Shown in pieces: positions 27,032-49,154 of a stretch of DNA of 64,000 nt (positions are counted from its first letter, which is position 1; every line of letters starts with the position of its first letter). The notes beneath the pieces are model-generated. The model was not told where the DNA came from. It worked only from the letters and a program-made list of their open reading frames with translations, and ran no database searches. The DNA comes from Bacilli bacterium (GTDB taxonomy: Bacteria > Bacillota_I > Bacilli_A > RFN20 > CAG-826): assembly GCA_024695235.1 (NCBI GenBank), contig JAILIP010000009.1:55647-119646 (forward strand), written 5' to 3'. A program made the position numbers and the translations under genes.

Positions 27032-27061
27032 TTGCAATAAATATAAACTTAGTTTTATAAT
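27032..27061 (+). promoter_or_regulatory. Strong sigma-70-type promoter TTGCAA-N18-TATAAT for the 27196 gene
   Basis: -35 at 27032-27037 and -10 at 27056-27061. This predicts a 5' UTR of approximately 128 nt. Confidence 0.55.
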
Positions 27062-27195
27062 TTATGTGTCCCAAAAATCATATCTAAATTGTCCCATATT
27101 AGATCTGATTAATAAGACATTTCCTATCATCCACTCAATTTAAGATAAACGTTGAGTGATTTTCTGCGTTTATCCCCTAGAAAGGAATTATTAAA

Positions 27196-27882
27196 ATGAA
27201 AAAATCAAAAATCGTCGTCCCAGCCGTTGCATTATTAGCTCTTGGTTTGGCCGCTTCTACAACTGCTACAGTTGCATGGTTCCAAGCAACATCAGCAGCT
27301 ACATTAACAGACAAATCAGCACCAGCAACAGTTAATGTTCAATCTTCTACTTATAGTGCAGGTGCATATTATGTTAAAGCAACTGCATCATTCTCACCAA
27401 GCGCAGCTCTTGATTATACTGATAAGAATGGCTCCACTTGGGTAATCGTTAATGGTTATTTAAGAACAGCCGCAGTTAAAAGTGCAAAATACGCATCAGT
27501 TACAATTGCAGTAAACTTCTATTCGAACGAAGCTTGTACACAAGCTGCTACTGTATCCGAACTCGCTGAAATTGGCGCCGCATTTAGTGGTTTAACAGTT
27601 ACAATCAACCCAGATGCAAACACAAGATTAACAACCAGTGATCCAAGTAGCAATTTTGCTACAGCTTTCGCTTCTAAATTGGATGTTAGTGATACGGTCA
27701 ATGTTACCTTAAGCTCTGCCGGCGCAGCTTCATATTCGAATAATACCCATTATGTCTCAGTTAATGGCGATGGTACAAGTGAAGTTGCAGATGCTCACGT
27801 TGATGGCGAAGCCGCCGCATCAGAATACACTACAGATGGCGGACTTACATTAACAATCGCTTCTACAGCAAGATCTGCTTAA
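27196..27882 (+). CDS. Small secreted Ala/Ser/Thr-rich protein with a SipW-cognate-like signal peptide; candidate major fibre subunit
   Basis: 228 aa. The sequence runs MKKSK, then a hydrophobic helix, then TATVAWFQATS. The mature part is A/S/T/V-rich with beta-strand-like alternation. SD AGAAAGGA lies upstream. The gene is monocistronic, with its own promoter and a strong terminator. Confidence 0.6.
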   Translation: MKKSKIVVPAVALLALGLAASTTATVAWFQATSAATLTDKSAPATVNVQSSTYSAGAYYVKATASFSPSAALDYTDKNGSTWVIVNGYLRTAAVKSAKYASVTIAVNFYSNEACTQAATVSELAEIGAAFSGLTVTINPDANTRLTTSDPSSNFATAFASKLDVSDTVNVTLSSAGAASYSNNTHYVSVNGDGTSEVADAHVDGEAAASEYTTDGGLTLTIASTARSA

Positions 27883-27906
27883 TTTATAATCTTTATAAAG
27901 ATTTAG

Positions 27907-27929
27907 GGCACACTATGTGTGCCTTTTTT
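27907..27929 (+). terminator. Intrinsic terminator after the 27196 gene
   Basis: GGCACAC-tat-GTGTGCC followed by T6. Confidence 0.8.
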
Positions 27930-28032
27930 AAAAGAAAGCAAATTATTTGGTTTCTACAATCTGACTTCGAGCAAAAACTTTTTGCATTTTCACACATATG
28001 TTACTATTATTAAAGGTGCGTATAGGTGGATT

Positions 28033-28407
28033 ATGAAACCATTAACAAAAAAGATTTTGATTTATAGTGGCCTTTCACTCGACATTATTGTCACTGTGTT
28101 TTTGTTTGTTTTATCAATCATAATGTTGGCCACAATGCCAGAAACATATCCTGGATTTGATATGAAAATGTATTATGAAAGCCATCCTGGTTTCATAACT
28201 TATTTGCAGGCAAATCCTACAGTATACTTATTAGCATGCGTCTTGCCTCTTGTTATTCTTTTGATTGGCAATATATTTTTACTTATTTTATTCATTAATA
28301 AAGCCGGAAAGAAAAAAGCGGCGTTGTCAGATTTATCAGAGGATCAAAAGGCTGCCCTTCGTGCTGAAATCCTTAAAGAAATGGATTCACCAGAAGAAAA
28401 GAAATAA
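28033..28407 (+). CDS. Small two-TM membrane protein with a charged C-terminal tail, unknown function
   Basis: Start at ATG 28033 (MKPLTKKILIYSG...), preceded by AGGTGG. It has two hydrophobic segments and the tail LSEDQKAALRAEILKEMDSPEEKK. Confidence 0.55.
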   Translation: MKPLTKKILIYSGLSLDIIVTVFLFVLSIIMLATMPETYPGFDMKMYYESHPGFITYLQANPTVYLLACVLPLVILLIGNIFLLILFINKAGKKKAALSDLSEDQKAALRAEILKEMDSPEEKK

Positions 28408-28426
28408 GTGTCTTAGTAGTTTGAAT

Positions 28427-28450
28427 GCGAGCTCATACGGGCTCGCTTTT
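28427..28450 (+). terminator. Intrinsic terminator after the 28033 gene
   Basis: GCGAGCTC-atac-GGGCTCGC (8 bp, one G:T pair) followed by TTTT. Confidence 0.7.
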
Positions 28451-28485
28451 AATTTTCATGAACTTTAGTTCATAAATATTGGTGT

Positions 28486-28515
28486 TTGAATACACGCATA
28501 TATACGTGATATATT
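28486..28515 (+). promoter_or_regulatory. Promoter TTGAAT-N18-(TGa)TATATT driving riboswitch 1 and operon 1
   Basis: -35 at 28486-28491 and an extended -10 TGATATATT at 28507-28515. The predicted start site lies at approximately 28522, at the 5' edge of the aptamer. Confidence 0.5.
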
Positions 28516-28521
28516 TAAATT

Positions 28522-28645
28522 AGCAAAAAGCAAAACCACAGTGATGTGGCGACGCAAAACTAAAGGGTCTTAATTAAGATAGCCAGTTGCCTAGAGGTTC
28601 TTATTGAACGCCACTAAATGGATGATAGGTAGCTGGCTTTTAAAA
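28522..28645 (+). promoter_or_regulatory. c-di-GMP-I (GEMM-I)-like riboswitch 1, aptamer plus terminator-type expression platform
   Basis: GCAAAACCACA-GUGA-UGUGGCGACGCAAAACUAAAGGGUCUUAAUUAAGAUAGCCAGUUGCC (28530-28591) has these features: a GNRA-capped hairpin, a GACGCAAA junction, a second hairpin with a CUAAAG/GAUAGCC receptor-like loop, and an AGCCAG-UUGCC closing. The 3' half (28581-28593) can instead pair with 28626-28638 in a 13-bp stem followed by UUUU. Confidence 0.7.
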
Positions 28646-28700: not shown

Positions 28701-29480
28701 ATGGTCGATTTAAGCTTTATTAGGAAACGTAAAGCTAAGAAAATCGTTGCACTAGTTGGCGGGTTATGTGGCGCTGCAGTAGTAGTTGTATCTGCTGTTG
28801 CCCTTTTGGGCCAAAGAGCCGCACCTTTAACTGTCAAGCTTACTAACAGTGGTGCATCATTAGCATTATTCAAGTCTGAATTCGAAAACGATCGTAAATC
28901 ATTCTTACTCGCTACTGATAGCAAACCATATACTGAAATAAGCGAACCCGCTTTACGCGCATATGAGAGCGTACTAGACGTGGATGATTCAAAACCTCTC
29001 CTCACATCGGATGAGCAATCACTCCAATTCTATCAATACACTTTCTATCTCACGAATAGTGGCGCAAGTGCAGCTGATTACACATTCAGCTTAAACATTT
29101 CCTATCCACACAGATCCAGCTTTGACTTAGCTGATGTTTTGCGTGTGCGCTTTTATGAGAATGACGGAAACGATAAGTTGACTCATAACTACAAGACTTA
29201 TGCCAAACACTCGGATATATATAATGCCGAAACAGGTGAATATGAACCTGAACGCATTTCTGGTAGTCAAAGTGAATTTGCTGAGAAGTTTGAAAATGCA
29301 AACACAGTTCTCACTCAAAACGTATCCGCTTTCCCTGCAGGAGCAGTCACACGTTACACAGTTGTCGTGTGGATTGAAGGTGAAGACCCACAAAGTAAAG
29401 GTCCAGCTCCAGTGGACTCTGGTATTGCTCTAGGAGTAAACATTAGTGCCCATGAAGCAGAGGAGACACCTCTCGAATAA
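28701..29480 (+). CDS. N-terminally TM-anchored or secreted beta-rich protein, TasA/camelysin-like candidate (paralogue group, WIEGEDP motif)
   Basis: 259 aa. A basic N-terminus is followed by the TM helix IVALVGGLCGAAVVVVSAVALLG, but with no AW[FY] motif. LTNSGAS occurs twice, like the N-G-S strand motif recalled from TasA. The C-terminal VVVWIEGEDP resembles VFVEGWDEH and QYIEGWDRD in the next two ORFs. Confidence 0.45.
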   Translation: MVDLSFIRKRKAKKIVALVGGLCGAAVVVVSAVALLGQRAAPLTVKLTNSGASLALFKSEFENDRKSFLLATDSKPYTEISEPALRAYESVLDVDDSKPLLTSDEQSLQFYQYTFYLTNSGASAADYTFSLNISYPHRSSFDLADVLRVRFYENDGNDKLTHNYKTYAKHSDIYNAETGEYEPERISGSQSEFAEKFENANTVLTQNVSAFPAGAVTRYTVVVWIEGEDPQSKGPAPVDSGIALGVNISAHEAEETPLE

Positions 29481-30495
29481 ATTATCTGCAACGCTTGCAG
29501 CGTCTATATTAGCCGTAGCACTCACAGGAGTTACCTGTGGGACTTTTGCTTGGTTTACGTACGAGACGCGCGCAAAGATTGAAGAATTTCAAGGAATTAC
29601 TATTGGAGTCGGTGATTTGCAAGTGGGTATTCTGTCAGAAGCATATTTAGATAGAGCTGAAGAATATGGTTTGATTAGAGATGAAAGTAATCCTAACGAA
29701 ACAATTTACTGGTTTGATGGTCATACCATGGAGAATGAAACAATTAACTATGTTTTAAGTTCAAACGGTTATGCCACAAATGCTTTGCATCCAGTAACTT
29801 CGCGTAAATATGTGACTGGTGATCCTCTCACCCTATATGCTGCTCCTGATTTTAAACCCGAAGAAGATGCCAAAGCATCAAAAGATGGTAGAATATTCTT
29901 GCCGTTAGTTTTTAAATACGAAGACATCATTGATGATAGTTTGATTTCAAATGAAAACATATTCCTGTCTGATGTAAAACTTTCAACGCCAAGCAGCGAT
30001 AGTTACATCCACAGGGCAGTTCGTGTTCATACGGATAACAAAAATAACAATCGTCATTTGATTAACCCAACAACAAGCGAAGATGGTTCTACTGGTGTTG
30101 GTGGTGTCTTAGATTTAAATAAAGACGGTTTTTATGATACCGAGGTTACAGGTAGCGACCTCCGAGAACATGTATATGGGCAAGCCGAGTTCCAATACAA
30201 AACTGAAGTAGAAACAGAGGACACTTTTGTTCCTATTGAACAAAGAACAACATTCAAAGCCGGGCATCTAGCAGGTGCCTATTCACTTGAATCGTGTACT
30301 CCTGAAAAAGCAGAGTATGAAGGTTTTTATGGCTTTAGGAATAAACGCAAATGGGTTGCAACTACAAATCCAGAGACGAACAACTATGCTTATCTAGACC
30401 TATCTGTATTTGTTGAAGGATGGGATGAACACGTCATCGATTCTGAACGAGATTTACCATTTTCCATGGAGTTGAAATTTGAAGTAGTATTCTAA
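29446..30495 (+). CDS. Secreted protein with a SipW-cognate-like signal peptide (paralogue A, DxNxDG loop, EGWD motif)
   Basis: The GTG at 29446 lies 9 nt after AGGAG; an alternative ATG is at 29452. The N-terminus is ...LAVALTGVTCGTFAWFTYETRA. It has GGVLDLNKDGFYD and ends with FVEGWDEH...SMELKFEVVF. Confidence 0.55.
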   Translation: MPMKQRRHLSNKLSATLAASILAVALTGVTCGTFAWFTYETRAKIEEFQGITIGVGDLQVGILSEAYLDRAEEYGLIRDESNPNETIYWFDGHTMENETINYVLSSNGYATNALHPVTSRKYVTGDPLTLYAAPDFKPEEDAKASKDGRIFLPLVFKYEDIIDDSLISNENIFLSDVKLSTPSSDSYIHRAVRVHTDNKNNNRHLINPTTSEDGSTGVGGVLDLNKDGFYDTEVTGSDLREHVYGQAEFQYKTEVETEDTFVPIEQRTTFKAGHLAGAYSLESCTPEKAEYEGFYGFRNKRKWVATTNPETNNYAYLDLSVFVEGWDEHVIDSERDLPFSMELKFEVVF

Positions 30496-30496
30496 A

Positions 30497-31561
30497 ATGA
30501 ATAAAAAACGTTTAGCAGCATTTGGAATAGCAATAACGGGTGTGATGTTAGTAGCATCTGTGGCTTTTACTGTTGCTTGGTACAATGGTTCATCTAATTT
30601 AGCAGTCTATAACTTCGACATTTCTCTAGGTGACAAGAAACTTACTATTTCCACAGATAATGTGAATTTCAAAGAAAACTTAACTAGAGATGATGTCAAA
30701 GACGCTATCCCGGAAAAATACAGGCCTGTTAGCAGTGCCTTCTCCAATGAATGGATAAGTCAAAAAGCAACCCTTCCGCAATTTACATCTGGTTACAACT
30801 ACATACCAGAAAAGGTGAATATGACATCAATTGATGATGTCAACAACGCTGATGATGGTGTATTCAGAAAAGTGTTATATCTCAAAAGTGATTCTTATGC
30901 AAAAGTATCTTTAGATGCAGAGAAAACTTACATTAACGCAGATAATGATTCAAATGAAAGCATTTCAGGAAAACTCAAAAAGGTATATCCAAACTTAACC
31001 AAAGAACAAATTGTGGAACAACTTAACAAAATTGAGAATTCACTTCGCTTCTCAATCCTTGTCTTAAATGATGATGGAAAAGAAGTTGATGATAGTGAAT
31101 ATCAATACACGATCGTGGATCCACATAAAAATGGAACCACAAAATTAGGTGGCATCTTGGATGCAGATGGCGACGGTTATTACGATAACGTCAATGGTAA
31201 AGAAGTCATTTATGGCGAAGTTAAAAACGCAAATGATGGAACCATCTCATATAAGAATGCTGAAGCAAACGATGTAGGGGAATCAGAGAATTGTTTTGAT
31301 TCCAAACATAAAGCCGGCGTCCAAGCCTTAGATTTTGAATCTTCAGAATCAAAAGGTATGGAAATAGTCGAAGAACACTCTTTATCCTTAGAGGAACTTA
31401 GTCAGTTCACCTTTACACTTCAGGCTGATGTCTCTAAGAAGATAGTGTTGTCCCAATATATTGAGGGTTGGGATAGAGATAGTGATAATTACACAATGTT
31501 TTCCCGTTTTGTCACTAGTATTTGTTTCAAACTAGCAGACGGGGGGAATGGAGGCAACTAA
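30497..31561 (+). CDS. Secreted protein with a SipW-cognate-like signal peptide (paralogue B, DxDxDG loop, EGWD motif)
   Basis: MNKKRLAAFGIAITGVMLVASVAFTVAWYNGSS, with GGILDADGDGYYD and YIEGWDRDSDNY...ICFKLAD. Its length and motif order match the 29446 ORF. Confidence 0.55.
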   Translation: MNKKRLAAFGIAITGVMLVASVAFTVAWYNGSSNLAVYNFDISLGDKKLTISTDNVNFKENLTRDDVKDAIPEKYRPVSSAFSNEWISQKATLPQFTSGYNYIPEKVNMTSIDDVNNADDGVFRKVLYLKSDSYAKVSLDAEKTYINADNDSNESISGKLKKVYPNLTKEQIVEQLNKIENSLRFSILVLNDDGKEVDDSEYQYTIVDPHKNGTTKLGGILDADGDGYYDNVNGKEVIYGEVKNANDGTISYKNAEANDVGESENCFDSKHKAGVQALDFESSESKGMEIVEEHSLSLEELSQFTFTLQADVSKKIVLSQYIEGWDRDSDNYTMFSRFVTSICFKLADGGNGGN

Positions 31562-31564
31562 AAT

Positions 31565-33091
31565 ATGTCAGCATATTTTCAATATTTAGGTGCAATGATT
31601 GTGGAATTTTTCAAAAACTTTGGAGGATTTTTTGCCGCAGGGTGGAAACTACTTCCAAGCCAATTTGAAAGATATAACGCAATATATAAAGCCTATTCAC
31701 CAGACTTTGGTGCTGGTGGATGGATAATGTGGGTTATTTTCCTCATTGTCTTTATAGGTGCAATTGGAGCACTCGGATTTGGAATTTATCTACTTCTCCG
31801 CAAATACATTAAATTTGCTAAGAAAGAAATTGAGAAGGATGAACTTCAAAGACAAATTGGTAGACTCAATTACGAGTTATATCAAATCATGCAAGAAAGA
31901 GATCGTATCTTAGATATGAAAGTTAAATCTCTTGGCATTGATAAAAAGATTGGACCAGAAGGAGAAGGTGGAGAGCCATCTGAAGATGAGCAAACAATCG
32001 AGGAACTTCAATCTAGATTCCCTAAATTAACTCACGTTGATAATCTCTATCGTGGAAAAGATAACGAAATTCCAGAAGTTGAAGGTCTCACATTAAAAGA
32101 TCTTTGTGAAAACTTCCGTAACTTCGCAGCATCTCAACTTGGTCTATACTATACCATCACAACTATCAGACAATTATTTGCTGGTATCGGTGCTGGTAAA
32201 CTCGTCATTCTCGAAGGTATTTCTGGTACAGGTAAAACTTCCTTACCATATGCTTTAGGTAAATTCTTTGCTCATGATGCTGAAATCTGTTCAGTTCAAC
32301 CTAACTGGAAAGATAGATCTGAACTTCTTGGTTACTACAACGAATTTACTAAGAAATTTAATGAATCCGAATTCTTACGCGCGCTATATACTACTTTATA
32401 TAGAAGAGATTTAAATATCATCGTCCTCGATGAAATGAACCTTGCCCGTGTTGAATATTACTTTGCTGAATTCTTATCCGTTTTGGAAATGCCTAATCCA
32501 AATGAATGGAACATTGAACTTATCGGTTCACATGATGAAAACGATCCAAAACAATTCAAGAATGGCAAAATCAAAATCCCTCAAAACGTTATCTTCTTTG
32601 GAACAGCCAATAACGATGACTCAACCTTTACAATCTCCGATAAGGTTTACGACCGTGCTATTTGCTTGTTCTTCGATAACAAAGGTATTCCATTTGAAGC
32701 TCCATTCCAAGCTCCAATGGTTGTACCATATACACAAATGCAAAGACTATTTGATGAAGCTGACGCCAAATATCCTTGCAGTGAAGATACATTAATGAAA
32801 TTTGCTGAACTAGACGACTTCGTTATTAAGAAATTCCGTCTTGCATTCGGTAACCGTATCTTAAAACAACTCAAGAAATTCGTTCCATGCTTTGTTGCCT
32901 GCGGTGGAACAGAACTTGACGCAATTGACTTTATCTTTACAAACAAGATTCTTAAGAAGTTTGAATCCCTTAACATCGGATTCTTGAAAGTAGAGCTCAA
33001 AGAGCTCAATGCTATGCTTGATAGACTTTTCGGAGCCGATAATTTCCCAATGGCTCACAAGTTTGTCAATAACTTAATTAGAATGGCTTAA
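31565..33091 (+). CDS. Membrane-anchored McrB-like AAA+ (AAA_5/dynein-related clade) NTPase
   Basis: It has one TM segment (WIMWVIFLIVFIGAIGALGFGIYLLL) followed by a basic stretch and a coiled coil. The NTPase core has Walker A GISGTGKTS, SVQPNWKDRSELLGYYN, Walker B plus signature IIVLDEMNLARVEYYFAEFLSVLE, and FFGTANNDDSTFTISDKVYDRA. SD GGAGG lies upstream. Confidence 0.65.
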   Translation: MSAYFQYLGAMIVEFFKNFGGFFAAGWKLLPSQFERYNAIYKAYSPDFGAGGWIMWVIFLIVFIGAIGALGFGIYLLLRKYIKFAKKEIEKDELQRQIGRLNYELYQIMQERDRILDMKVKSLGIDKKIGPEGEGGEPSEDEQTIEELQSRFPKLTHVDNLYRGKDNEIPEVEGLTLKDLCENFRNFAASQLGLYYTITTIRQLFAGIGAGKLVILEGISGTGKTSLPYALGKFFAHDAEICSVQPNWKDRSELLGYYNEFTKKFNESEFLRALYTTLYRRDLNIIVLDEMNLARVEYYFAEFLSVLEMPNPNEWNIELIGSHDENDPKQFKNGKIKIPQNVIFFGTANNDDSTFTISDKVYDRAICLFFDNKGIPFEAPFQAPMVVPYTQMQRLFDEADAKYPCSEDTLMKFAELDDFVIKKFRLAFGNRILKQLKKFVPCFVACGGTELDAIDFIFTNKILKKFESLNIGFLKVELKELNAMLDRLFGADNFPMAHKFVNNLIRMA

Positions 33092-33095
33092 TTAA

Positions 33096-35021: not shown

Positions 35022-35026
35022 ATTAT

Positions 35027-35794
35027 ATGAGTGAGGAAAAATTAGAAGTAGTCGATAAACCAAAAAAAGACAAAAGCAAAGGTAAGAAGATTAAATCCAT
35101 TGTTGAATGGACCATTATTGGAATCTTCATTAGTGCTGCGTTAGTCTTGGTAGGTTTTAAGATTTACTCAAGCAAGACAAACAAGTCAATGTTTGGTTCA
35201 CAATATCCAGTCGTTCTTACTGACTCAATGGAACCAGACTACAAGGTTAAAGACGTATTGGTAGTAAAAGAAGTTGATCCCGCAGTACTTAAAGAAGGCG
35301 ATGATGTTACCTTCTATTGGGATTTAACTGGTAAAGGTGATGTTTATCCGATGACCCATAGGGTCAAGTCCATTGAATACTTCGCAAATGCCGAAGAAAA
35401 CGATGGATATCACTATACAATCATCACTCATGGTATCAATACCAAATCAAACCAATGTGGTAAGCCTGAAGGATGCGACATGACGTGGCAAACTCAAACA
35501 TTTCACGAAGATGCCCTCATTGGAAAAGTGGTTAGAAAAAGTTGGTTCTTGAAATTTGTTACTTCTGTTTGGGGATTGATTCTTTTAATTCTTCTGCCGT
35601 GTCTATACATCATGACTACAACTGTTGTAGATGCGTTCAAGAAGCTTGAAGAAGCCGATAAAGAAGCAGAACTTACTACTGTGGGCGTTGGAGAAAAACC
35701 AGATAATGATCCACTTGCAGGACTATCTGAAAATGATATTGAAGCCCTTAAGAAACAGATGCTTGATGAGATGTTAAATAAAGGAAAGAAATAG
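35027..35794 (+). CDS. SipW-like (archaeal/ER-type, S26B) signal peptidase I
   Basis: It has an N-terminal TM segment, the catalytic Ser box VVLTDSMEP, the His box PMTHRV, and a C-terminal TM segment (VWGLILLILLPCLYIMTTTVV). This is the same architecture as B. subtilis SipW as recalled (LSGSMEP/THRI), plus N- and C-terminal charged extensions. Confidence 0.75.
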   Translation: MSEEKLEVVDKPKKDKSKGKKIKSIVEWTIIGIFISAALVLVGFKIYSSKTNKSMFGSQYPVVLTDSMEPDYKVKDVLVVKEVDPAVLKEGDDVTFYWDLTGKGDVYPMTHRVKSIEYFANAEENDGYHYTIITHGINTKSNQCGKPEGCDMTWQTQTFHEDALIGKVVRKSWFLKFVTSVWGLILLILLPCLYIMTTTVVDAFKKLEEADKEAELTTVGVGEKPDNDPLAGLSENDIEALKKQMLDEMLNKGKK

Positions 35795-35795
35795 T

Positions 35796-41124: not shown

Positions 41125-41144
41125 TTTAAATGATTATCTGAATG

Positions 41145-41167
41145 AGTAGGCTTATTGCCTACTTTTT
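41145..41167 (+). terminator. Intrinsic terminator ending operon 1
   Basis: AGTAGGC-ttatt-GCCTACT followed by TTTTT. Confidence 0.8.
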
Positions 41168-41308: not shown

Positions 41309-41324
41309 ATACTTGAACTTGATA

Positions 41325-41412
41325 AAGGCAAAACTACAGTGATGTAGTGACGCAAAGCTAAAGGGTCTTGATTAAGATAGCCAGTTGCCAATAATGGTGA
41401 CTGGCTTTTAAA
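41325..41412 (+). promoter_or_regulatory. c-di-GMP-I (GEMM-I)-like riboswitch 2, aptamer plus terminator-type expression platform
   Basis: GGCAAAACUACA-GUGA-UGUAGUGACGCAAAGCUAAAGGGUCUUGAUUAAGAUAGCCAGUUGCC (41327-41389). GGCAA/UUGCC closes P1. 57 of 63 positions are identical to copy 1, with one compensatory C-G to U-A change in the GNRA hairpin. 41379-41390 can alternatively pair with 41395-41406 (12 bp, loop AUAA) followed by UUUU. Confidence 0.75.
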
Positions 41413-44400: not shown

Positions 44401-45220
44401 TACTGTTACTGCTTCTTACACATTCGGCAGCTCTACAGAGACGGCGACTAAGAGCGTTACTGGTTTAACAGTTACAGCACCGTCGACGCTAATAACTGCA
44501 ATTACTTTAACTGCTGCAAGTTCATCAATTGTAGCTGGGAATACTACAACAGTTACAATTGGAATTACACCAAGCAGCGCTTCGTCACAAAATATTACAG
44601 TCACTTTAACTGCTGGCGGCGGAACATATGGTAGATTTGATAATTCGACCGGCAGCACAACAACAAAAGATGTTCAATGTAGTAGTGGTTCTGGCTCGTT
44701 TACTGTTTATGGTGTTGCAGCTGGTTCATTCAAACTTCAAGCTGCAGCAAATGATGGATCTAGTATAACTTCCAATCAAATCACTATTACAGTTACCGCT
44801 CCATCCAGTATTACATTCACAACTAATAGATCTAATCTATCGCCAACTTGGTCTTCCTCTGGTACGTATACCGTTACTTCAAGCGGTGAGACTATAACGT
44901 TTAGTAATTTGACTGCATCCAGCAATAGTGATATTCAAATGGCAAAGAATTCCACAGCAACTAGTACTGAATTCTCAGGAAATATTTCTCAAATCATATT
45001 GTATGGTTGTGCACATACAGGTTCTAAGAGCGATGGTTCATTTACTGTTAGCGGTAGTGCGAATGGATCGTCGTGGACAGAGGTGTACTCAATTTCAAAT
45101 ATGAGTCCTTCTCAAGGAAACATCACTATTTCAGTTTCTTCGGGGTATAAGTATTTTAAAGTTACAGTTGGCAGCTCACGTGTCCTTAAGATTACTGGAA
45201 TTAAGGTTACATATTCATAA
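41438..45220 (+). CDS. Giant secreted adhesin-like protein with a SipW-cognate-like signal peptide, Ig-like repeats and two jelly-roll/CBM-like modules
   Basis: 1260 aa, N-terminus MNRFQKRIMIIAAAICNVSLTLTAAGVATYAWFKAKANL. It has repeated Ig-like units of the type L(T/D).I.(I/A)T...K.(Y/F)....(F/L)...G(L/M).VTA.Y and Big_2-like units (SASVAEGGDVTITV; IVAGNTTTVTIGITPSSAS). It has no LPXTG, no C-terminal TM segment and no lipobox. SD AAAGG lies upstream. Confidence 0.75.
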   Translation: MNRFQKRIMIIAAAICNVSLTLTAAGVATYAWFKAKANLVAVSNNLSISVADPDEKFEYDIYKYDDNLKAGKKFTDPSDFTLPDYDTYITEKNVYANCIIRAEVTVPSLNTSDEYFTIDVTRLASNYFITSTTKVDKKTSNVIQLKSAVYSFLESGETDFTENTNMIGHGDIDETSPATIYSTVSDYFATKQTPTTFVPIRYDDNGNPIVNRGDDENKRTITLIPDLPTGYTITKVIIYLECSYHEDLVDKYVESNSTDSAATKYALQGDVSSIVFSHKEKVAKTSQATGKYIKVESTAALANGQYLHAYETDESTGAAKLMKGSLATSDKAATNPSGIFVADNIRDATINSLPSNEPKSIDTTDAIDSDAFAYTKKSGENSINTFKSKAGYYIGNDTQSNGIATNDDYANGYKHQITFSGDHANVDAYGTGSNNMRLGYYTSGNGRFYYQKDSGKQTDLFRYTENVAEMPTLTGIEITTATTATSFYTSQKFAITNLVVTATYSNDSSAIVTKSCTFTSDTDPATLVPGTTTLSTVTQSKNIYVSYSEGGVTINGEGVAALTYTISVAQDELNSISATAPTKSYYFVNEEFSSAGMTVTAHYKSGNPVNIELNNPNLTITAPSMSSVSDPSVNVSYTDGVTKSTTVTIHIVARYLSINKNSASVAEGGDVTITVDHNQDVTITNTPGTGTVSLNPSSIEYTGTNKARTTTDVTVHGETAGTVTLTFSSSGCSPVSCNITVTATPADVITMTADEVITDSGYKAYATNISKDYNGTGSESKGWLVTFGGNNYTFGTNNNATNFDNCNLSSYDKYAVSTVATTSETAAAFANTSVMHKIRNISFTCTGGTNLNTTTAYIIYSADNITFSKPTLASGSTSQGTTVTSGTTYTFKFNSALAGYFAIVFKSSLSSVGNWKIEGLSVTYNPKALDHIAITGDVSNKSYTSGQSLNMSGLVVTAYYTDNTNEVVTGSATLTSSVDPLTTGTTSVTVTASYTFGSSTETATKSVTGLTVTAPSTLITAITLTAASSSIVAGNTTTVTIGITPSSASSQNITVTLTAGGGTYGRFDNSTGSTTTKDVQCSSGSGSFTVYGVAAGSFKLQAAANDGSSITSNQITITVTAPSSITFTTNRSNLSPTWSSSGTYTVTSSGETITFSNLTASSNSDIQMAKNSTATSTEFSGNISQIILYGCAHTGSKSDGSFTVSGSANGSSWTEVYSISNMSPSQGNITISVSSGYKYFKVTVGSSRVLKITGIKVTYS

Positions 45221-45231
45221 AAGGAGAAAAG

Positions 45232-48200
45232 ATGTTTAAGTTTTTGAAGCAACACAAATTCACAATCTTACTCACAGCATTAAATGCTCTCCTTTTAAGT
45301 GCGGCTGTTATCGGAACTGTCGCTTGGTATTCAATCAAAATGGAGATTGATCCACCTACTGGTACAACTCAAACAAGTGGTATTTTAAAATCATATTTTG
45401 ATTCTGGAAGTGGTACCCAGGGTGATCCTTATGTAATCACAAGGCCTATTCATTTTTATCACCTATCATATCTTCAAAATTCTGATTATTTCGGGGATAG
45501 CACAAAATATTTCCGTTTTGGGAAAAACATTGATGGCGACGCTAATGGAGAATATGAATTCTACAATTATGGTGATGATGGCAAACTTCTTGCTGGAACT
45601 TCAAAAGAATTAAATGTTAAGTATTACAGTGGCACAAATGCCTTATATCCAATCGGCACGCCTCAACATCCATTTAAATCAGTTATCTATGGAACAAACC
45701 TTACTGTTAAAAATGTACACATCAAAGGTGATGGTTTAGCAGATATAGGTGTCTTTGGATATGTTCACGAAGATGCTGAAATACATAACTTGTATTTTGA
45801 TACAGTATCTATTGATACAGGAACGCCTACATCATCTAATGGTACTCACTCCCACACAAGTGGAAAATACAACGTTGGCTACTTAGCCGGTCATATACAA
45901 TCTAGTGATTCTTTTGACAATGTCTATGTGAATAAATGCGAAATTTACAATAGTGGCATCCCTAACATCCAAGGTTTAACTGAATATGGATATTTTGGTA
46001 AATGCGATTCTATTGAGACACCTTTAACTACATCGAGTACAGATGAATATAGAATTGATCCAGCTACTGTCCAAGGATATTTCAAAGACAACTGGACATC
46101 TGGCAAGCAATTGTCTAGTAAGTCTGTCACCACAAGAAACACAGAGTATACTGTGAAAGGAACAGATTTCACATCTGTAGTTAATAGTAGCGATAATAAC
46201 CATAATGCAAGTACATCTTACACAATGAAAGGTACGGCATCGAGTGTTCCGCACAATTATTCATTATCTACTATTGGCCATCAGGGTGAAGAAACCAGTT
46301 ATGAGATTTCATACTCCAGCAGTCACTTGAATATGGACGTAAGTACCACCGTTATTCCGGATGGAGTAAATATTAATACTATTACAGAACCAGGTTCTTA
46401 CATGTATTGGGATACATCCGCTTCAAAATGGGTATATTATGTCATTTCTCCAGGTGGCTCAACATCTTCTAAAACCTTTAACGTTTTCTCATTGTCCTAT
46501 CAATATAACGGCAATACGTACTATGTTTATGTTAGTGGCAATGTTACTGAAAGCAATGGTGTAAAAAATTACTCAGGATTGTCACTTGCTGTTTCTTCTA
46601 CAGTGCCATCGATTAGCAATAGACGTTATTGGTTCTCTTTGAGATCGTCAAACACCGATTATGGTATAACATCAATTGCTACTAATTCTGGCGCTGAACG
46701 CTACTATTTATTCTGTCCAGATGTTGATGCTTATGCCTATATTACAAGCAACACAACAATTAATTTCGGCAATTATTCAACTGTGAAGGACTTATCGGGC
46801 ACAGGATCATCTAAGACATTCACTTTTGATGGTGTTGATACAAAGATTGAATGGGTCGGTTCTAGTAATACGAACTATGGTTTCCAAGCAACATCATCCT
46901 CTATTACAGCAATAAGACCTGTTAGTGGAAATGATGCAACTATTTTCGCACTTAATGGTACAGGTGCTCGCACTTCGGAAAGCTCATCTGATACAGATAA
47001 GTATCAATTGGTTACGGATACATCTCAGTTGAAGAATAATCAAGAATACTCTATCGGCTATGATGCTGGTGATTTGCACAGGTTGATTGGCGAGCAAAGA
47101 ACTAATAATAGAACCGCAGTTACAGTAACTGTCGATTCTGGAACAACTTTAAATTCTGCATCTGGTGTTAGAAAATTTACTTTGGGTGTCGATGATGAAA
47201 CAATAACTGGGTCAACTGTATATTCGTTCTTTGACCAAGCAGAATATACTGGTAATGGTGGCTATTTGTATGCGGCATCATCATCGCATAACTACTTAAG
47301 AACTCAACAAACAAACAATTTAAACGGATTATGGTCGATAACTTTTGGCAGTGGCGGAGCAGCAACAGTAACAGCACAAGGTAGTAACTCTCGAAACCTA
47401 CTTAGATACAATTCGTCAGATGATTTGTTTGCATCTTATGGTCAAGGTCAGAAACTAGTTAAAATCTATAAATATATTGCCGGGTCTGGAACTATCCAAA
47501 CCGCAAATCATGCGGAATTGATTGCAACCGTAGAAGATGGAACTGATGTCGATCCAGTACCGTATGATGCATTTTATGATGCTGATACAACCGGTGGAAC
47601 AAACTATCAATCCATTACTTTTACTCGTGAACGCATTACATGGGATTTTACAAATCATTTAATAACCATTTCCCCACAATCCAACCAACATTATGAAAGA
47701 ATAACATCAATTGACGATCTTTCAGATGGTGAATATTTAATTGTTACAGAATCAGGCGGGAAGGCTCTTAATGGTCAAGGAAGTGGTGGCGCGAGCGCAT
47801 CTGTCACAATAACCAACCATACTATTCCTTACAATGAAACAACAACAGGGTATGCTTTTACATTGGATTCTGAGAATGGAAGATTCCTGGCAAAAGACAG
47901 CTACTATATATATAGTGCTGGCAGTGGTACAAGCATGTCTTATACTCAAACAGAATCAGACCTAGTTAACCACTCGATTTCTTTTGATGGTAACAATGTT
48001 GTAATTAAATCGCCAAACAATAATAGAAAATTGGCTTACTATTCATCAGGACCTAATTTTAGATACTATGCTTCGATTGGCAGTGGCCAAGAAGTTCAAT
48101 TGTACAAACTTATTAGTGAAACAACCGAACCTGAATATATTGCTGATACAATAGCTACTTTGGATAACAAATATAATAAAGATAAAATTGATGCTGTTGG

Positions 48201-49122
48201 TACAGTAACCTATTCATCTTCATCGATGACATTTGCATCAAATCTTAGCAATATCAAAGCAGTTAGTAAATGGAATACAGAAAATAGTGAGCTTGGTATT
48301 GGTGCCAAATTCTATCAAACAAGATACTTATCTAATTCCTTAGTGTTATTTGTCCCTAACCAAGGTGCATTAGATTTCGGAACAATTCATTTGGAATCAA
48401 CTGGAACAGCCCCTGTATTTGTGAAAGGATCAGATAATGGCATAACTAATTTTGAACCATCAATTGGATTTACTGATGCGAGAATCGGCTGTACTGATGA
48501 TTTGGTGGGAGACAGCAACCATAGTTATACTTTAAGTCTTAACATGCATAATATATTCAACCTATGTTATGCAGCATTAGATTCGGATGGTAAAATACTT
48601 GCATCATATGATACTGATGGCGCTAAAGTGCTTCCTGCAACCGCAATCAATCCATCTAATATTGCAACATTTGTACTAGCAATAAGTGTTCCTTCTTCAT
48701 CAATGTCTGTTTCAGCAATCAACTTAAAGATTCGTCATCTTGAAGGCGAAATGGCGAACTTCAGTAATGTTGGTTATAGAAACGCAACGTACACTTCTGG
48801 TGCTACGATTGTTGATTCAATCGTAACAGACAATGTCAATACAACCACAAGTACTATCGCAAGAGAAGCTATTGATTTTAGAATTGATAGTGGTTCTAAT
48901 TCTAATAAGATCTTCTTTAGAATGATGTATAATGCTACGACGAAAACGTACGATATTACATTCAAATGCACGTCGAACACACACATACTAATCTTTAATT
49001 TTGATGCTGAAAGAGTAAAACTGTATTTGAACGATTCGCAATTAACTGAATCTTATCATGATGAAACTGTGTCAGGAACAGCTTGGACGTATCCAGTAGC
49101 ACTTCCGTCAAACTATAGTTAA
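45232..49122 (+). CDS. Giant secreted protein with a SipW-cognate-like signal peptide, a beta-helix/GLUG-like region and two copies of a recurrent approximately 160-aa module
   Basis: 1296 aa, N-terminus MFKFLKQHKFTILLTALNALLLSAAVIGTVAWYSIKME. It has IGVFGYVHEDAEIHNLYF (GLUG-like). It has no C-terminal anchor. A strong SD AAAGGAG lies upstream, 11 nt after the upstream stop. Confidence 0.75.
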   Translation: MFKFLKQHKFTILLTALNALLLSAAVIGTVAWYSIKMEIDPPTGTTQTSGILKSYFDSGSGTQGDPYVITRPIHFYHLSYLQNSDYFGDSTKYFRFGKNIDGDANGEYEFYNYGDDGKLLAGTSKELNVKYYSGTNALYPIGTPQHPFKSVIYGTNLTVKNVHIKGDGLADIGVFGYVHEDAEIHNLYFDTVSIDTGTPTSSNGTHSHTSGKYNVGYLAGHIQSSDSFDNVYVNKCEIYNSGIPNIQGLTEYGYFGKCDSIETPLTTSSTDEYRIDPATVQGYFKDNWTSGKQLSSKSVTTRNTEYTVKGTDFTSVVNSSDNNHNASTSYTMKGTASSVPHNYSLSTIGHQGEETSYEISYSSSHLNMDVSTTVIPDGVNINTITEPGSYMYWDTSASKWVYYVISPGGSTSSKTFNVFSLSYQYNGNTYYVYVSGNVTESNGVKNYSGLSLAVSSTVPSISNRRYWFSLRSSNTDYGITSIATNSGAERYYLFCPDVDAYAYITSNTTINFGNYSTVKDLSGTGSSKTFTFDGVDTKIEWVGSSNTNYGFQATSSSITAIRPVSGNDATIFALNGTGARTSESSSDTDKYQLVTDTSQLKNNQEYSIGYDAGDLHRLIGEQRTNNRTAVTVTVDSGTTLNSASGVRKFTLGVDDETITGSTVYSFFDQAEYTGNGGYLYAASSSHNYLRTQQTNNLNGLWSITFGSGGAATVTAQGSNSRNLLRYNSSDDLFASYGQGQKLVKIYKYIAGSGTIQTANHAELIATVEDGTDVDPVPYDAFYDADTTGGTNYQSITFTRERITWDFTNHLITISPQSNQHYERITSIDDLSDGEYLIVTESGGKALNGQGSGGASASVTITNHTIPYNETTTGYAFTLDSENGRFLAKDSYYIYSAGSGTSMSYTQTESDLVNHSISFDGNNVVIKSPNNNRKLAYYSSGPNFRYYASIGSGQEVQLYKLISETTEPEYIADTIATLDNKYNKDKIDAVGTVTYSSSSMTFASNLSNIKAVSKWNTENSELGIGAKFYQTRYLSNSLVLFVPNQGALDFGTIHLESTGTAPVFVKGSDNGITNFEPSIGFTDARIGCTDDLVGDSNHSYTLSLNMHNIFNLCYAALDSDGKILASYDTDGAKVLPATAINPSNIATFVLAISVPSSSMSVSAINLKIRHLEGEMANFSNVGYRNATYTSGATIVDSIVTDNVNTTTSTIAREAIDFRIDSGSNSNKIFFRMMYNATTKTYDITFKCTSNTHILIFNFDAERVKLYLNDSQLTESYHDETVSGTAWTYPVALPSNYS

Positions 49123-49128
49123 TAAAAT

Positions 49129-49154
49129 AGCACGTTCAAAATAACGTGCTTTTT
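49129..49154 (+). terminator. Intrinsic terminator ending operon 2
   Basis: AGCACGTT-caaaat-AACGTGCT followed by TTTT. Confidence 0.8.

Follow-up and report, generated by a model that had tools for sequence, protein, structure and literature searches.

A set of genes for secreted proteins, a signal peptidase, an McrBC-like pair and cyclic-dinucleotide enzymes was found in the 64 kb window (the whole stretch of DNA that was analysed), with the ORFs at the coordinates given in the first-pass annotation (Table 1; ORFs without a name are called by their first position). That annotation had proposed three transcription units. The nine-gene operon at 28701-41124 was retained, its intergenic gaps of -35 to +5 nt showing tight packing, but four units were counted instead of three, because the 27196 gene and the operon are separated by the gene of the small membrane protein mem124, which has its own terminator. 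Terminator-like hairpins bound the units (27907-27929, 28427-28446, 41144-41164 and 49129-49150), and a promoter-like site for small228 is located at 27032-27061. Composition gave no hint that the 'island' is foreign (GC 0.31-0.38 inside vs 0.33-0.38 outside).

Table 1. Features of the locus, in window coordinates.
Feature	Position	Strand	Evidence and properties
Membrane GGDEF diguanylate cyclase	25887..27026	+	Pfam GGDEF 91.3 bits
small228, small secreted A/S/T-rich beta-sandwich protein	27196..27882	+	monocistronic; AF2 pLDDT 78.1
Terminator-like hairpin	27907..27929	+	GGCACAC-TAT-GTGTGCC then T6; 3' of small228; read straight from the sequence, absent from the scan list
mem124, small two-TM membrane protein	28033..28407	+	likely start ATG 28033; longest ORF from GTG 27919
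mem124 terminator	28427-28446		sequence scan
c-di-GMP-I (GEMM-I) aptamer, operon leader	28519..28594	+	RF01051, 57.7 bits, gathering score 35
Expression platform, operon leader	28581..28642	+	13-bp terminator stem, then U-run; RNA folds z-scores -3.1, -4.0
A259, bitopic membrane protein	28701..29480	+	N-terminal TM helix; conserved ALLGQ[RK]AAPLTV segment
B349, secreted protein	29446..30495	+	signal ...CGTFAWF; GGVLDLNKDGFYD acidic loop; EGWD motif
C354, secreted protein	30497..31561	+	signal ...FTVAWY; GGILDADGDGYYD loop; invariant EGWD; AF2 pLDDT 87.6, pTM 0.83
AAA508, membrane-tethered McrB-like AAA+ NTPase	31565..33091	+	AAA_5 21.3 bits, just below cutoff 22
McrC-like partner	33096..35021	+	DUF2357 (residues 65-160) 28.3 bits, cutoff 23.3
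Divergent SipW/ER-archaeal-type signal peptidase I	35027..35794	+	two TM helices; TDSMEP (Ser), THRV (His); tail LSENDIEALKKQMLDEML
Membrane EAL phosphodiesterase	35796..37331	+	Pfam EAL 224.6 bits
PNP_UDP_1-family protein, nucleoside phosphorylase/nucleosidase fold	37328..38077	+	Pfam 42.3 bits
1015-aa membrane protein, degenerate EAL	38077..41124	+	Pfam EAL 56.4 bits (weak)
Terminator-like hairpin, end of nine-gene operon	41144..41164	+
Second GEMM-I aptamer, adhesin leader	41318..41393	+	RF03167 c-di-GMP-I-GGC, 60.7 bits, gathering score 59
Expression platform, adhesin leader	41379..41409	+	12-bp terminator stem, then UUUU; RNA folds z-scores -4.65, -6.16
1260-aa S/T-rich secreted protein, putative adhesin	41438..45220	+	signal ...ATYAWF; one Big_3 domain
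1296-aa secreted protein, putative adhesin	45232..49122	+	signal ...GTVAWY
Terminator-like hairpin, end of adhesin unit	49129..49154	+	hairpin 49129-49150

Neighbourhood conservation, suggested as a check in the first-pass annotation, was assessed in 85 loci out of a set of 97 species-level genomes with a match. The order A259-B349-C354-AAA508-DUF2357-peptidase-EAL-PNP-dEAL is present in nearly all of these loci and recurs in ~80 genomes, counted at species level, of uncultured Bacilli from gut and rumen, so that the gene set is strongly co-conserved. The PNP_UDP_1 gene always lies between the two EAL genes, and the cyclase 25887 is found upstream of the locus in many relatives, not in all. 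No operon protein is better conserved than AAA508: its identity is 57-89% in those relatives whose copy is full-length, as against only 26-59% for the marker protein C354.

Both multigene units had been described as starting with a GEMM-I-like riboswitch. The Rfam matches lie above the gathering scores, and Rfam aptamers were detected ahead of the operon and ahead of the adhesin genes in 7/7 relatives tested. In the operon leader the 5' arm of the terminator stem is the 3' strand of the aptamer (AGCCAGUUGCCUA); the stem of the adhesin leader is likewise built from the aptamer 3' strand, and a terminator overlapping this strand was found in 10 of the 13 leaders examined. Both leaders look like ON switches, a direction predicted from the computed aptamers and overlapping terminators.

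The ligand was approached by cmscan alignment and sequence comparison. The operon aptamer has A at the position equivalent to G20 of Vc2 (28529). The aptamer of the adhesin leader has G there; at position A47 it keeps A, where the GGC model has G, and is thus canonical at this diagnostic base. Among regex-detected aptamers of the locus family, 54/60 carry A at the G20 position. G20A is the signature of GEMM-Ib riboswitches (c-GAMP/bispecific); Vc2 G20A binds both ligands with Kd of 53 nM and 120 nM, and a bispecific example is known from Clostridium beijerinckii (PMC6140456). Because most aptamers carry A20, the family ligand could be 3',3'-cGAMP, or both ligands, in which case the locus would not be a pure c-di-GMP circuit. 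A riboswitch response mainly to 3',3'-cGAMP, or one of equal strength to both ligands, is nevertheless judged unlikely: the adhesin leader of the window has G20, no cGAMP synthase was seen in the 64 kb window, and the operon encodes a conserved EAL enzyme which is predicted to be active. EAL chemistry is c-di-GMP-specific. Furthermore, the adjacent cyclase 25887 has an intact GGDEF motif with the canonical guanine-specifying Asp (GHPQGDQL, read from the translation) and is presumably, following the Hypr-GGDEF literature, not of the cGAMP-producing type.

All catalytic motifs of the phosphodiesterase 35796 (YQPK, EAL, NFS, ExxE, DDFGSG, KID, EGV, QG) are conserved across its orthologues. In 38077, DDFGSG is replaced by YDYEGN (pairwise alignment) and EAL by EIT (by reading). 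This protein has a conserved CxxCP element and, read from the translation, two back-to-back TM helices; its overall conservation is low. The complete c-di-GMP circuit described at first is supported for the cyclase, the phosphodiesterase and the degenerate EAL domain by their Pfam scores; however, Pfam detected no GGDEF domain in 38077, and its 'doubly degenerate' description was made by eye. The protein is a candidate c-di-GMP receptor or scaffold.

The six-frame translation of the window contains six copies of the motif T-x-A-W-[F/Y], compared to a chance expectation of ~0.3 motifs over all six frames (a rough estimate from typical residue frequencies). Five of the six lie at residues ~24-34 of the ORFs 27196, 29446, 30497, 41438 and 45232, each directly behind an N-terminal hydrophobic helix, which confirms the common N-terminal pattern reported for five ORFs. 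The motif is conserved in related loci; B349 sequences keep it in 62/79 cases under a strict and in 77/79 under a relaxed definition. In profile comparisons, the substrates are related to one another by their first ~40 residues only. The signal region of small228 (MKKSKI..PAVALLALG..ATVAWF) is strongly conserved and the remainder hypervariable, with relatives aligning over the first 30-65 aa only. B349 and C354 are paralogues (hhalign probability 99.9%, E 4e-32). The C354 family comprises 2,563 representatives at E<=1e-3, and no Pfam domains were found in the C354-family proteins checked. A C-terminal strand motif W-[IL]-E-G-x-D is common to A259, B349 and C354; A259 matches C354 with an hhalign probability of 90% over 25 columns, and the T-x-A-W motif is found in 0/64 sequences of the A259 family. 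A259 is accordingly a candidate membrane anchor or base and a partial relative of B349/C354.

The first-pass annotation had regarded the secreted proteins as true TasA/camelysin subunits, processed by SipW and forming donor-strand fibres which carry the giant adhesins. A SipW-type peptidase is indeed encoded in the operon, and the motif is in register with the TasA cleavage site (T-W-A↓A-F vs T-x-A↓W-F), although the underlying hhalign match is weak (probability 1.8%). TasA matures at residue 28, and residues 28-38 form its donor strand (PMC9674648). AF2 gives a beta-sandwich for both 30497 and 27196, and the part of the chain that follows the presumed cleavage site is unstructured in each model; the top Foldseek matches, all weak, have jelly-roll or beta-sandwich folds, and one of them is the archaeal bundling pilin 7ueg, which is TasA-like (E 0.84). 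TIGR04088 scored 12.4 bits on the 27196 N-terminus, below its cutoff of 19. Against this, Peptidase_M73 matched neither the window proteins nor 47 family members, the NCBIfam SipW-substrate families matched none of the secreted proteins, neither confident model had a PDB match better than E 0.07 (hence no significant match for small228 or C354), B. subtilis TasA entries were absent among the 50 matches listed for either model, and the substrates have the signal region alone in common. TasA/camelysin homology is thus not supported, the fibre model as a whole appears improbable, and 'fibre' is used as an analogy only, because the substrates resemble no known fibre subunit.

Regarding the 'anchorless giant adhesins', two proteins of ~1,300 aa without a C-terminal anchor are present. 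The word 'adhesin' is an interpretation, because the two proteins hold one Big_3 domain between them; no known domain was found in the 45232 protein. The 41438 protein aligns to the C354 family alignment (A1) by the signal region only and has a homologue behind a riboswitch in the related locus L002; homologues of the 45232 protein are found in loci L010, L040 and L038. Another surface protein of the window has a plain C-terminal TM anchor and no LPXTG.

The peptidase 35027 had been called an ER/archaeal-type SipW homologue, and this assignment holds: TIGR02228 (44 bits, cutoff 51.85) and NF046067 SipW (42.9 bits) match at E ~1e-11, both scores being under the curated cutoffs, and the 65 aligned sequences from the window and related loci retain the catalytic Ser and His. 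At the equivalent of SipW Asp106, GDN is changed to GIN in a provisional alignment with SipW. The cytoplasmic tail of mem124 (LSDLSEDQKAALRAEILKEM), whose orthologues in relatives have ~120 aa, resembles the peptidase tail. The tail motif is present in 53/65 peptidase and 38/45 membrane-protein family sequences and in no other locus family; elsewhere it was found only in 6 unassigned ORFs.

With these components, a regulated release similar to the Lap system could be envisaged, in which N-terminal signal anchors hold the adhesins, SipW-like cleavage, gated by the McrBC-like motor, by the degenerate EAL receptor or by both, releases them, and the second messenger sets retention versus shedding. 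The adhesins without C-terminal anchor, hydrophobic regions of ~20 residues (long enough to span a membrane), the co-conserved degenerate EAL membrane protein, a conserved cytoplasmic peptidase tail which could take in a signal, and the plain TM anchor of the other surface protein would agree with this. However, an extracytoplasmic output domain such as that of LapD is missing from the degenerate EAL protein, as read from the translation, the peptidase is not of the LapG class, and the relatives B349, C354 and A259 as well as the small hypervariable protein would be left unexplained. A low probability is therefore assigned to regulated release, including its gating.

AAA508 matches McrB in the PDB (E 8e-4) and the PADLOC family PDC-M26A (E 6.6e-40), and its own family comprises at least 8,000 90%-identity clusters. 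It contains Walker A GISGTGKT, Walker B VLDEMN and the signature TANNDDS; from the translation, a TM helix was read at residues ~53-77 and a coiled-coil-like segment behind it. The DUF2357 score of its partner was obtained after the low-complexity tail had been taken off. The partner has a possible relict PD-(D/E)xK region with conserved E187-x-K189 and a variable upstream Asp, and a K/P/E-rich tail of variable length (ORF-derived protein lengths 444-2071 aa). In known systems, neither Sec export nor donor-strand polymerisation needs such a motor. The AAA_5/DUF2357 pair reported earlier is thus present, yet it is not 'embedded': the McrB-like ATPase is the best-conserved operon protein, so that the pair belongs to the core and is no inserted defence module. 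Modules for defence are, as a rule, mobile and patchily distributed. A working McrBC/CoCoNuT-type nucleic-acid-targeting module beside an ordinary SipW-dependent secretion cluster is very unlikely, despite the strong match to a defence-candidate family, the McrB similarity, the DUF2357 domain, the nearly invariant E-x-K and a lysine-rich tail which could bind nucleic acid, since the pair keeps a fixed position between secreted-protein genes and peptidase in ~80 species, a TM helix occupies the place of the DNA-reading domain, the Asp upstream of E-x-K varies (D/N), and Bell et al. tie this clade to signal peptidases, not nucleases (PMC11090510).

The reading which we favour, and consider rather probable as a whole, is that of a chromosomal, vertically inherited locus, specific to a lineage of uncultured gut and rumen Bacilli, which builds or displays cell-surface proteins at high cyclic-dinucleotide levels, whose McrBC-like/peptidase core corresponds to the CoCoPALM class and whose secreted proteins are not demonstrable TasA homologues. 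Bound ligand would keep the strand AGCCAGUUGCC within each GEMM-I aptamer; otherwise, this strand would form the terminator. The switched units would export the two paralogous 350-aa beta proteins and the two 1,300-aa putative adhesins, and the separately transcribed small hypervariable protein would be a member of the same exported set. The long hydrophobic signals end in [G/S]-T-x-A↓W-[F/Y], which would fit the -3/-1 rule for signal peptidase I; motif, adjacency and the register matching TasA suggest that the SipW/ER-type peptidase of the operon cuts there. A259 would remain in the membrane, because it has only the C-terminal strand motif in common with B349/C354 and no cleavage motif, and could anchor the released subunits, whose N-termini, aromatic and conserved, may serve for attachment or polymerisation. 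The McrB-like NTPase and McrC-like activator, as the most constrained core, probably power cleavage or assembly by nucleotide hydrolysis, and the C-terminal tail motif of the peptidase and the small membrane protein may be a means of docking. Judging from the domains, the co-transcribed EAL enzyme, predicted to be active, would exert a negative feedback, with the degenerate EAL protein as a candidate receptor.

Several known systems resemble parts of the locus. tapA-sipW-tasA of Bacillus subtilis, with TasA donor-strand fibres (PMC9674648, PMC10151520), likewise encodes a dedicated ER-type peptidase beside its secreted substrates and an accessory protein, or one resembling an anchor; the cleavage register T-x-A↓x-[F/Y] is common to both, and so is a function, putative in the window, that relates to biofilm and matrix. 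The window differs by proteins without TasA/Peptidase_M73 sequence or fold match, by W conserved at +1, by at least five unrelated substrates, some of them 1,300 aa long, by the McrBC-like motor and by riboswitch control instead of SinR (PMC9674648). In the operon sipW-bsaA-bsaB-bsaC of Clostridium perfringens, SipW is encoded together with several matrix proteins that are paralogues; their oligomers are anchored in the membrane and not in peptidoglycan, and their secretion reportedly depends on an NTPase-driven (type IV pilus) apparatus, a further likeness (PMC7395162, PMC11580942). However, BsaA and BsaB carry isopeptide locks and are remotely homologous to TasA, nothing of which was detected in the window proteins, and the motor of the window is McrB-like, not a PilB-type ATPase.

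In Firmicutes, c-di-GMP riboswitches control adhesins and pili such as C. difficile pilA1 and CD2831 and B. thuringiensis Cap. They have a GEMM-type ON switch, as is predicted for the window, with a terminator-based platform ahead of large surface adhesin or pilus genes; in the window, the switch would also govern a feedback phosphodiesterase and the machinery for assembly, sortase signals are lacking in the adhesins, and the locus family has mostly A20 (GEMM-Ib-type) aptamers. LapD-LapG-LapA is the adhesin retention system of Pseudomonas. By analogy only, it compares in its degenerate GGDEF/EAL-type membrane protein, dedicated peptidase, giant adhesins, N-terminal processing site and tie to c-di-GMP; the window differs in a degenerate EAL protein without periplasmic output domain, a protease of another class and a Gram-positive or wall-less context.

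The closest match is CoCoPALM, a class named by Bell et al. 2024 (eLife, PMC11090510) in three sentences of genomic context. Common features are an McrB-like NTPase with N-terminal TM and coiled-coil in the usual place of the DNA-binding domain, an McrC-like partner in which DUF2357 is joined by a charged, coiled-coil-like extension, a neighbouring gene of the signal peptidase family, and the abundance of the group. The FtsB homology of the AAA508 N-terminus was not reproduced with Pfam, and the NxD vs NxxD signature is ambiguous in AAA508 (NNDD). The first-pass annotation named no described system of this kind; the system is not wholly undescribed, because the link of the pair to signal-peptidase genes has already been named (PMC11090510). 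The cluster type has never been characterised, with no substrates, regulation or mechanism published. The locus is a real observation, partly anticipated in the literature. To the published CoCoPALM class it adds substrates with a cleavage motif, riboswitch control, GGDEF/EAL genes, an anchored A259 and a common tail motif; new points are the leaders predicted as ON switches, A20 in most aptamers, A259 as a partial relative of the exported paralogues that is anchored in the membrane and has no cleavage motif, and the tail motif of peptidase and mem124.

The ORF coordinates of the first-pass annotation agreed with the ORF map of the window, and genes are named here by their start. Nine genes spaced by -35 to +5 nt form the operon 28701-41124: A259 (28701), B349 (29446), C354 (30497), the McrB-like AAA508 (31565), its McrC-like DUF2357 partner (33096), a SipW/ER-type signal peptidase (35027), an EAL enzyme, a PNP_UDP_1 protein and a degenerate EAL protein. 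The gene of a small protein, small228 (27196), and those of two putative adhesins of 1260 and 1296 aa (41438 and 45232) adjoin it. Three transcription units had been proposed for the locus; these stand, and a fourth was found, a gene for a small membrane protein between the 27196 gene and the operon, with a terminator of its own. Its probable start is the ATG at 28033, because the ORF opening with GTG at 27919 overlaps the upstream terminator. The units are delimited by the terminator-like hairpins tabulated here.

Features of the locus in window coordinates, with the evidence for each
Feature	Position	Evidence
GGDEF cyclase	25887	Pfam GGDEF, 91 bits
Terminator-like hairpin	27907-27929	read directly from the sequence
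Terminator-like hairpin	28427-28446	
c-di-GMP-I aptamer, operon leader	28519-28594	RF01051, 57.7 bits (gathering score 35)
EAL enzyme	35796	Pfam EAL, 225 bits
PNP_UDP_1 protein	37328	Pfam PNP_UDP_1
Degenerate EAL protein	38077	weak Pfam EAL, 56 bits; YDYEGN in place of DDFGSG
Terminator-like hairpin	41144-41164	
c-di-GMP-I-clan aptamer, adhesin leader	41318-41393	RF03167, 60.7 bits (gathering score 59)
Terminator-like hairpin	49129-49150	

An rmlBCDA/glycosyltransferase block borders the locus on one side; Wzz, Bac_transf and Wzy-like genes border it on the other. The surrounding rhamnose-polysaccharide cluster (19964-25813 and 49266-52978) comprises rmlB/C/D/A and two glycosyltransferase genes upstream, and Wzz-like, Bac_transf (minus strand) and Wzy_C-like genes downstream. 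This co-location is not conserved, because the flanks differ in relatives. Chromosomal markers within the window are SecA, two release factors, UvrB and an aldolase. The region shows a flat GC profile; therefore, no compositional island is present. A foreign genomic island was rejected on the flat GC, on flanks of housekeeping and rhamnose-polysaccharide genes and on the inheritance of the locus throughout the lineage with varying flanks. Elsewhere in the window, a 558-aa ORF (15099-16775, minus strand) without Pfam match ends in an odd acidic and aromatic tail (HDRPHEDHYHDAPDDWDDWFDFWWGENFF).

Among genomes scanned at one per species, 97 encode a relative of C354. They derive from uncultured gut, rumen and faecal Bacilli, with the record labels Bacilli bacterium, Erysipelotrichaceae, Mollicutes, Clostridium sp. 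CAG:288, Ca. Onthovivens and Ca. Enterosoma. All window proteins were compared with the ORFs of 85 fetched loci. Wherever the contig was long enough, the order A259-B349-C354-AAA508-DUF2357-peptidase-EAL-PNP-degenerate EAL was retained, which bears out the expected conservation of the gene neighbourhood.

Membership in the riboswitch class (Rfam RF01051, clan CL00126) was judged by the gathering threshold of the covariance models. The GEMM-I-like riboswitch reported at the head of both multigene units was confirmed by two Rfam aptamers above their gathering scores. Eleven more Rfam aptamer matches were obtained in seven related loci, upstream of the operon in 7/7 and also upstream of the adhesin genes where these are present. 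For the second aptamer, a GGC variant was considered and rejected: the diagnostic A47 position is still A, and because of this its RF03167 label is not meaningful. In both leaders, a U-run is preceded by a strong hairpin (stems of 13 bp and 12 bp, z-scores -3.1 to -6.2), and the aptamer 3' strand (AGCCAGUUGCC) doubles as its 5' arm. Terminator and aptamer overlap in this way in 10 of 13 leaders examined in the window and six relatives. As the strand is shared, ligand-stabilised folding should prevent termination, and by standard logic both leaders are predicted ON switches.

The equivalent of Vc2 G20, overlooked in the first-pass annotation, is the unpaired base just 5' of the P1a GC. The operon leader has A at this place (28529), the adhesin leader G; A47 and C92 are retained in both aptamers. 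Regex detection across the related loci L002-L085 gave 60 aptamers, 54 of them with A20. G20A marks GEMM-Ib; the Vc2 variant with this change has a Kd of 53 nM for c-di-GMP and of 120 nM for c-GAMP, and natural bispecific aptamers exist in Clostridium (PMC6140456). A reading with cGAMP as the riboswitch ligand could draw on these properties and would be compatible with the model preferred below, and we consider it improbable. The physiological signal is more likely c-di-GMP, perhaps at lower sensing affinity: the neighbouring cyclase carries the guanine-specifying Asp in its canonical form, and the EAL enzyme of the operon is fully conserved.

Both enzymes were confirmed as GGDEF and EAL proteins by Pfam. 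The cyclase was also considered as a Hypr-GGDEF (cGAMP synthase), which was rejected on its canonical specificity Asp. The PNP_UDP_1 gene (37328-38077, nucleoside phosphorylase/nucleosidase fold) is always found between the active and the degenerate EAL genes in relatives; its expected catalytic region appears altered on our reading of the sequence. The 1015-aa degenerate EAL protein (38077-41124) has few conserved features; one of them is C-x(10)-C-x-x-C-P at residues ~526-541, a possible metal-binding knuckle.

The five ORFs with a shared N-terminal motif were all recovered (27196, 29446, 30497, 41438 and 45232), the motif lying at residues ~24-34 directly after a hydrophobic helix. A six-frame search of the 64 kb window gives six occurrences of T-x-A-W-[F/Y], and the chance expectation over all frames was roughly estimated at ~0.3. 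Two further secreted proteins of the window have ordinary export signals, 54571 a signal peptide and a C-terminal TM anchor, 57439 a lipobox; therefore, the motif is specific to the locus. The former (54571-57264) is an 897-aa Big_3 surface protein in which the C-terminal TM helix is followed by KKKKQ and LPXTG is absent. Its sequence hints at membrane rather than sortase anchoring of surface proteins in this organism.

With [G/S]-T-x-A↓W-[F/Y] as the predicted cleavage site, the -3/-1 rule is satisfied. In an hhalign alignment with a provisional TasA sequence, the motif and the TasA site T-W-A↓A-F coincide in register. Mature TasA starts at residue 28 and its donor strand covers residues 28-38 (PMC9674648). 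The motif is present in 77/79 orthologues of B349 (relaxed pattern) and 81/84 of C354, and also in the small protein and many other 'cargo' proteins (300-1,400 aa) adjoining the operon in relatives.

B349 and C354 are clear paralogues (hhalign probability 99.9%). They share an invariant E-G-W-D, and their common acidic loop GG-x-LD-x-D-x-DG-[FY]-YD looks like a calcium-binding loop. Their common profile finds 2,563 representatives at E<=1e-3, and the members checked had neither a Pfam domain nor an informative name. One 720-aa protein (P0186) matches the profile in three stretches and appears to be a tandem fusion of two subunits. A259 has only the last strand W-[IL]-E-G-x-D in common with the pair (hhalign probability 90%). 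It contains a TM helix, lacks the cleavage motif (0/64 family sequences) and has a conserved ALLGQ[RK]AAPLTV instead. We read A259 as a putative uncleaved, membrane-anchored relative of B349/C354.

In small228 orthologues, the signal is strikingly conserved and the body is not alignable beyond 30-65 residues. The signal peptide of the 27196-27882 product (MKKSKILVPAxAxLALG...) is thus far better conserved than the mature protein; cleaved signals rarely show such a pattern, which is reminiscent of pilin-like conservation.

The secreted proteins had been put forward as TasA/camelysin fibre candidates, a proposal which found no support in HMM and structure searches. Scans of all locus proteins with Pfam, NCBIfam and PADLOC gave no match to the TasA, camelysin or SipW-substrate families. 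Neither Peptidase_M73 nor an NCBIfam SipW-substrate family matched any locus protein or any of 47 C354/B349-family members at E<=1. On isolated N-termini, TIGR04088 (SipW-cognate signal) matched 27196 only, at a sub-threshold 12.4 bits (cutoff 19). TasA was not found among PDB sequences with the C354 family profile, and hhalign to the provisional TasA sequence gave a probability of 1.8%. The fold comparison covered two of six candidates as monomer models. Both AF2 models are beta-rich (C354: pLDDT 87.6, pTM 0.83; small228: pLDDT 78.1, pTM 0.74), with low confidence for the residues just past the predicted cleavage site. The best Foldseek matches in the PDB were generic sandwich or jelly-roll folds without significance (E 0.078 for C354, 0.074 for small228); the TasA-like ABP pilin 7ueg reached E 0.84, and no B. 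subtilis TasA entry was among the 50 matches listed for either model.

PDB sequence searches with both giant proteins returned nothing useful. A shared 'pilin module' on the adhesins was dropped, as their N-terminal 320-400 aa match the C354 family in the signal region only (hhalign). Mutual similarity among the substrates is confined to the first ~40 residues. True TasA-family fibres, to which the register of the motif and the beta-rich models might point, are unlikely given these searches; a more remote structural relationship may exist. On sequences and models, the system would work like a SipW/substrate system, and the proteins should not be filed in the TasA family. A Lap-like regulated shedding of signal-anchored adhesins could likewise start from the hydrophobic helices of 41438 and 45232; we give shedding a small chance.

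For the peptidase, a SipW-type enzyme of the ER/archaeal class had been claimed. It matched TIGR02228 with 44.0 bits (cutoff 51.85, E 1.9e-11) and the SipW family NF046067 with 42.9 bits (cutoff 190, E 3.9e-11). These scores, below both curated cutoffs at E about 1e-11, indicate a significant but divergent S26B homologue, and the claim holds in this form. The catalytic boxes are TDSMEP (Ser, SMxP box) and THRV (His, HR box). In 65 aligned peptidase sequences, S-M and T-H-R are at least 90% conserved and the Ser box has the form T-D/G-S-M. The GDN box with SipW D106 is provisionally GIN in the orthologues, the SipW sequence used as reference being a provisional one. A PDB sequence search with the peptidase gave no useful match.

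The peptidase (35027-35794) and the small two-TM protein (28033-28407) end in a common conserved cytoplasmic helix, L-S-x-E-(D/Q)-K-E-x-L-K-x-x-L-L-x-E-M; the C-termini in the window are LSENDIEALKKQMLDEML and LSDLSEDQKAALRAEILKEM, respectively. A regex for this tail matched 53/65 peptidase and 38/45 membrane-protein family sequences, none of the other locus families, and apart from these only six unassigned ORFs. The shared tail suggests a common cytoplasmic docking partner, for which the McrBC-like complex would be the obvious candidate.

AAA508 matched AAA_5 with 21.3 bits (cutoff 22), PDB McrB with E 8e-4 over residues 194-367 and the PADLOC defence-candidate family PDC-M26A with E 6.6e-40. 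Walker A, Walker B and the N-x-D/D signature are invariant. The signature, TANNDDS, can be read as N-N-D with a second D behind it, in line with the NxD (not NxxD) motif of the CoCoPALM clade treated below; a gapless alignment to NTAD of E. coli McrB is equally obtained. By our reading of the N-terminus, a TM helix (~residues 53-77) is followed by a heptad-like charged segment, both conserved; Pfam gave no DivIC/FtsB match at E<=10 for this part, which in the CoCoPALM clade is an FtsB-like fusion. In contrast to the McrB of type IV restriction systems, AAA508 has no DNA-binding domain, and the TM helix is in that place.

The gene 33096 starts 4 nt after AAA508, and the peptidase gene follows 5 nt further downstream, a position conserved in most loci extending that far. 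The product of 33096 matched DUF2357 (McrC N-terminal domain) with 28.3 bits (cutoff 23.3) once the K/P/E-rich tail was removed, and no nuclease family of Pfam matched. An E/K-rich helical segment was read at ~residues 370-440. E187-x-K189 is nearly invariant in the McrC-like family, whereas the upstream acidic residues vary (D36/N16 at position 167, D33/N25 at position 180). Residues ~440-641 of 33096-35021 form a repetitive K/P/E/V-rich tail of 200 aa, (KKxEPKK) type, and family lengths derived from ORFs range from 444 to 2071 aa. As 33096 has no signal peptide, the tail is probably cytoplasmic.

Full-length copies of AAA508 in relatives are 57-89% identical, compared with 26-59% for the C354 marker, and the conservation spans the whole protein. 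Therefore, AAA508 is under the strongest constraint of all components; it is not the inserted passenger implied by the description of the McrBC-like pair as "embedded". The family comprises at least 8,000 clusters at 90% identity; the homology search was saturated by close relatives, and no distant contexts were among the matches listed. A hitch-hiking defence module, in keeping with the PADLOC match, is very unlikely for a pair so conserved in sequence and position.

The first-pass annotation knew of no described system with this combination; the association of an McrBC-like pair with a signal-peptidase gene has already been named. Bell et al. called this clade CoCoPALM and left its treatment to a future paper (PMC11090510). 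A literature search found no follow-up on CoCoPALM and nothing on 'PDC-M26', and the supplements of the CoCoNuT paper available as text do not contain CoCoPALM. The locus shares with this clade the McrB-like GTPase domain, the adjacent DUF2357 McrC homologue with a coiled-coil and the signal-peptidase-family gene. On the features testable here it fits the description, and it is best filed as a CoCoPALM member with non-TasA substrates. The present analysis adds the signal of the substrates, A259 as a putative anchored relative, predicted ON control by riboswitches in which A20 predominates, the putative GGDEF/EAL feedback embedded in the locus, the shared tail motif and the motor as the most conserved part.

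The best-supported model, which we consider rather probable, is that of riboswitch-gated, SipW-type-processed surface proteins with an McrBC-like motor. It builds on the aptamers, their overlap with terminators, the motif, the domains, synteny and conservation. At high cyclic dinucleotide, both leaders would be read through, and the motif-bearing proteins would be produced and exported via Sec. The dedicated ER-type peptidase would then cut at T-x-A↓W-[F/Y], and at the cell surface the cleaved proteins may attach or form polymers, with A259 as a possible anchor. This attachment or polymerisation would be controlled or assisted by the membrane-tethered McrBC-like NTPase, and the co-transcribed EAL enzyme would feed back on the signal. 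More tentatively, and with less than an even chance, the membrane-tethered McrBC-derived motor could dock via the tail motif onto the ER-type peptidase and the small membrane protein, and power or gate a cleavage-coupled assembly of new-fold subunits on their uncleaved anchored relative under a bispecific A20 riboswitch.

The locus is less unprecedented than first thought, as each ingredient has a precedent. GEMM-controlled adhesins and pili occur in Firmicutes. Further precedents are SipW/TasA (PMC9674648), the SipW/Bsa operons (PMC7395162, PMC11580942) and the McrBC/signal-peptidase association of CoCoPALM (PMC11090510). For this barely described class, the locus supplies [G/S]-T-x-A↓W-[F/Y] as a defined substrate signal, candidates for an anchor protein and a docking motif, and a predicted inducer. 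The A20 riboswitches offer a natural set for the study of ligand bispecificity outside Geobacter. The locus is found in at least 97 species-level genomes of Bacilli from the human, livestock and poultry gut. If the McrB-like motor truly serves surface-protein processing or assembly, a restriction-enzyme engine would have been put to a striking new use; motor-driven assembly, if true, would mean that a defence NTPase has been exapted for protein assembly, in a lineage seemingly without sortase-type anchoring. It would also show how small-genome gut bacteria attach to their hosts or to each other.
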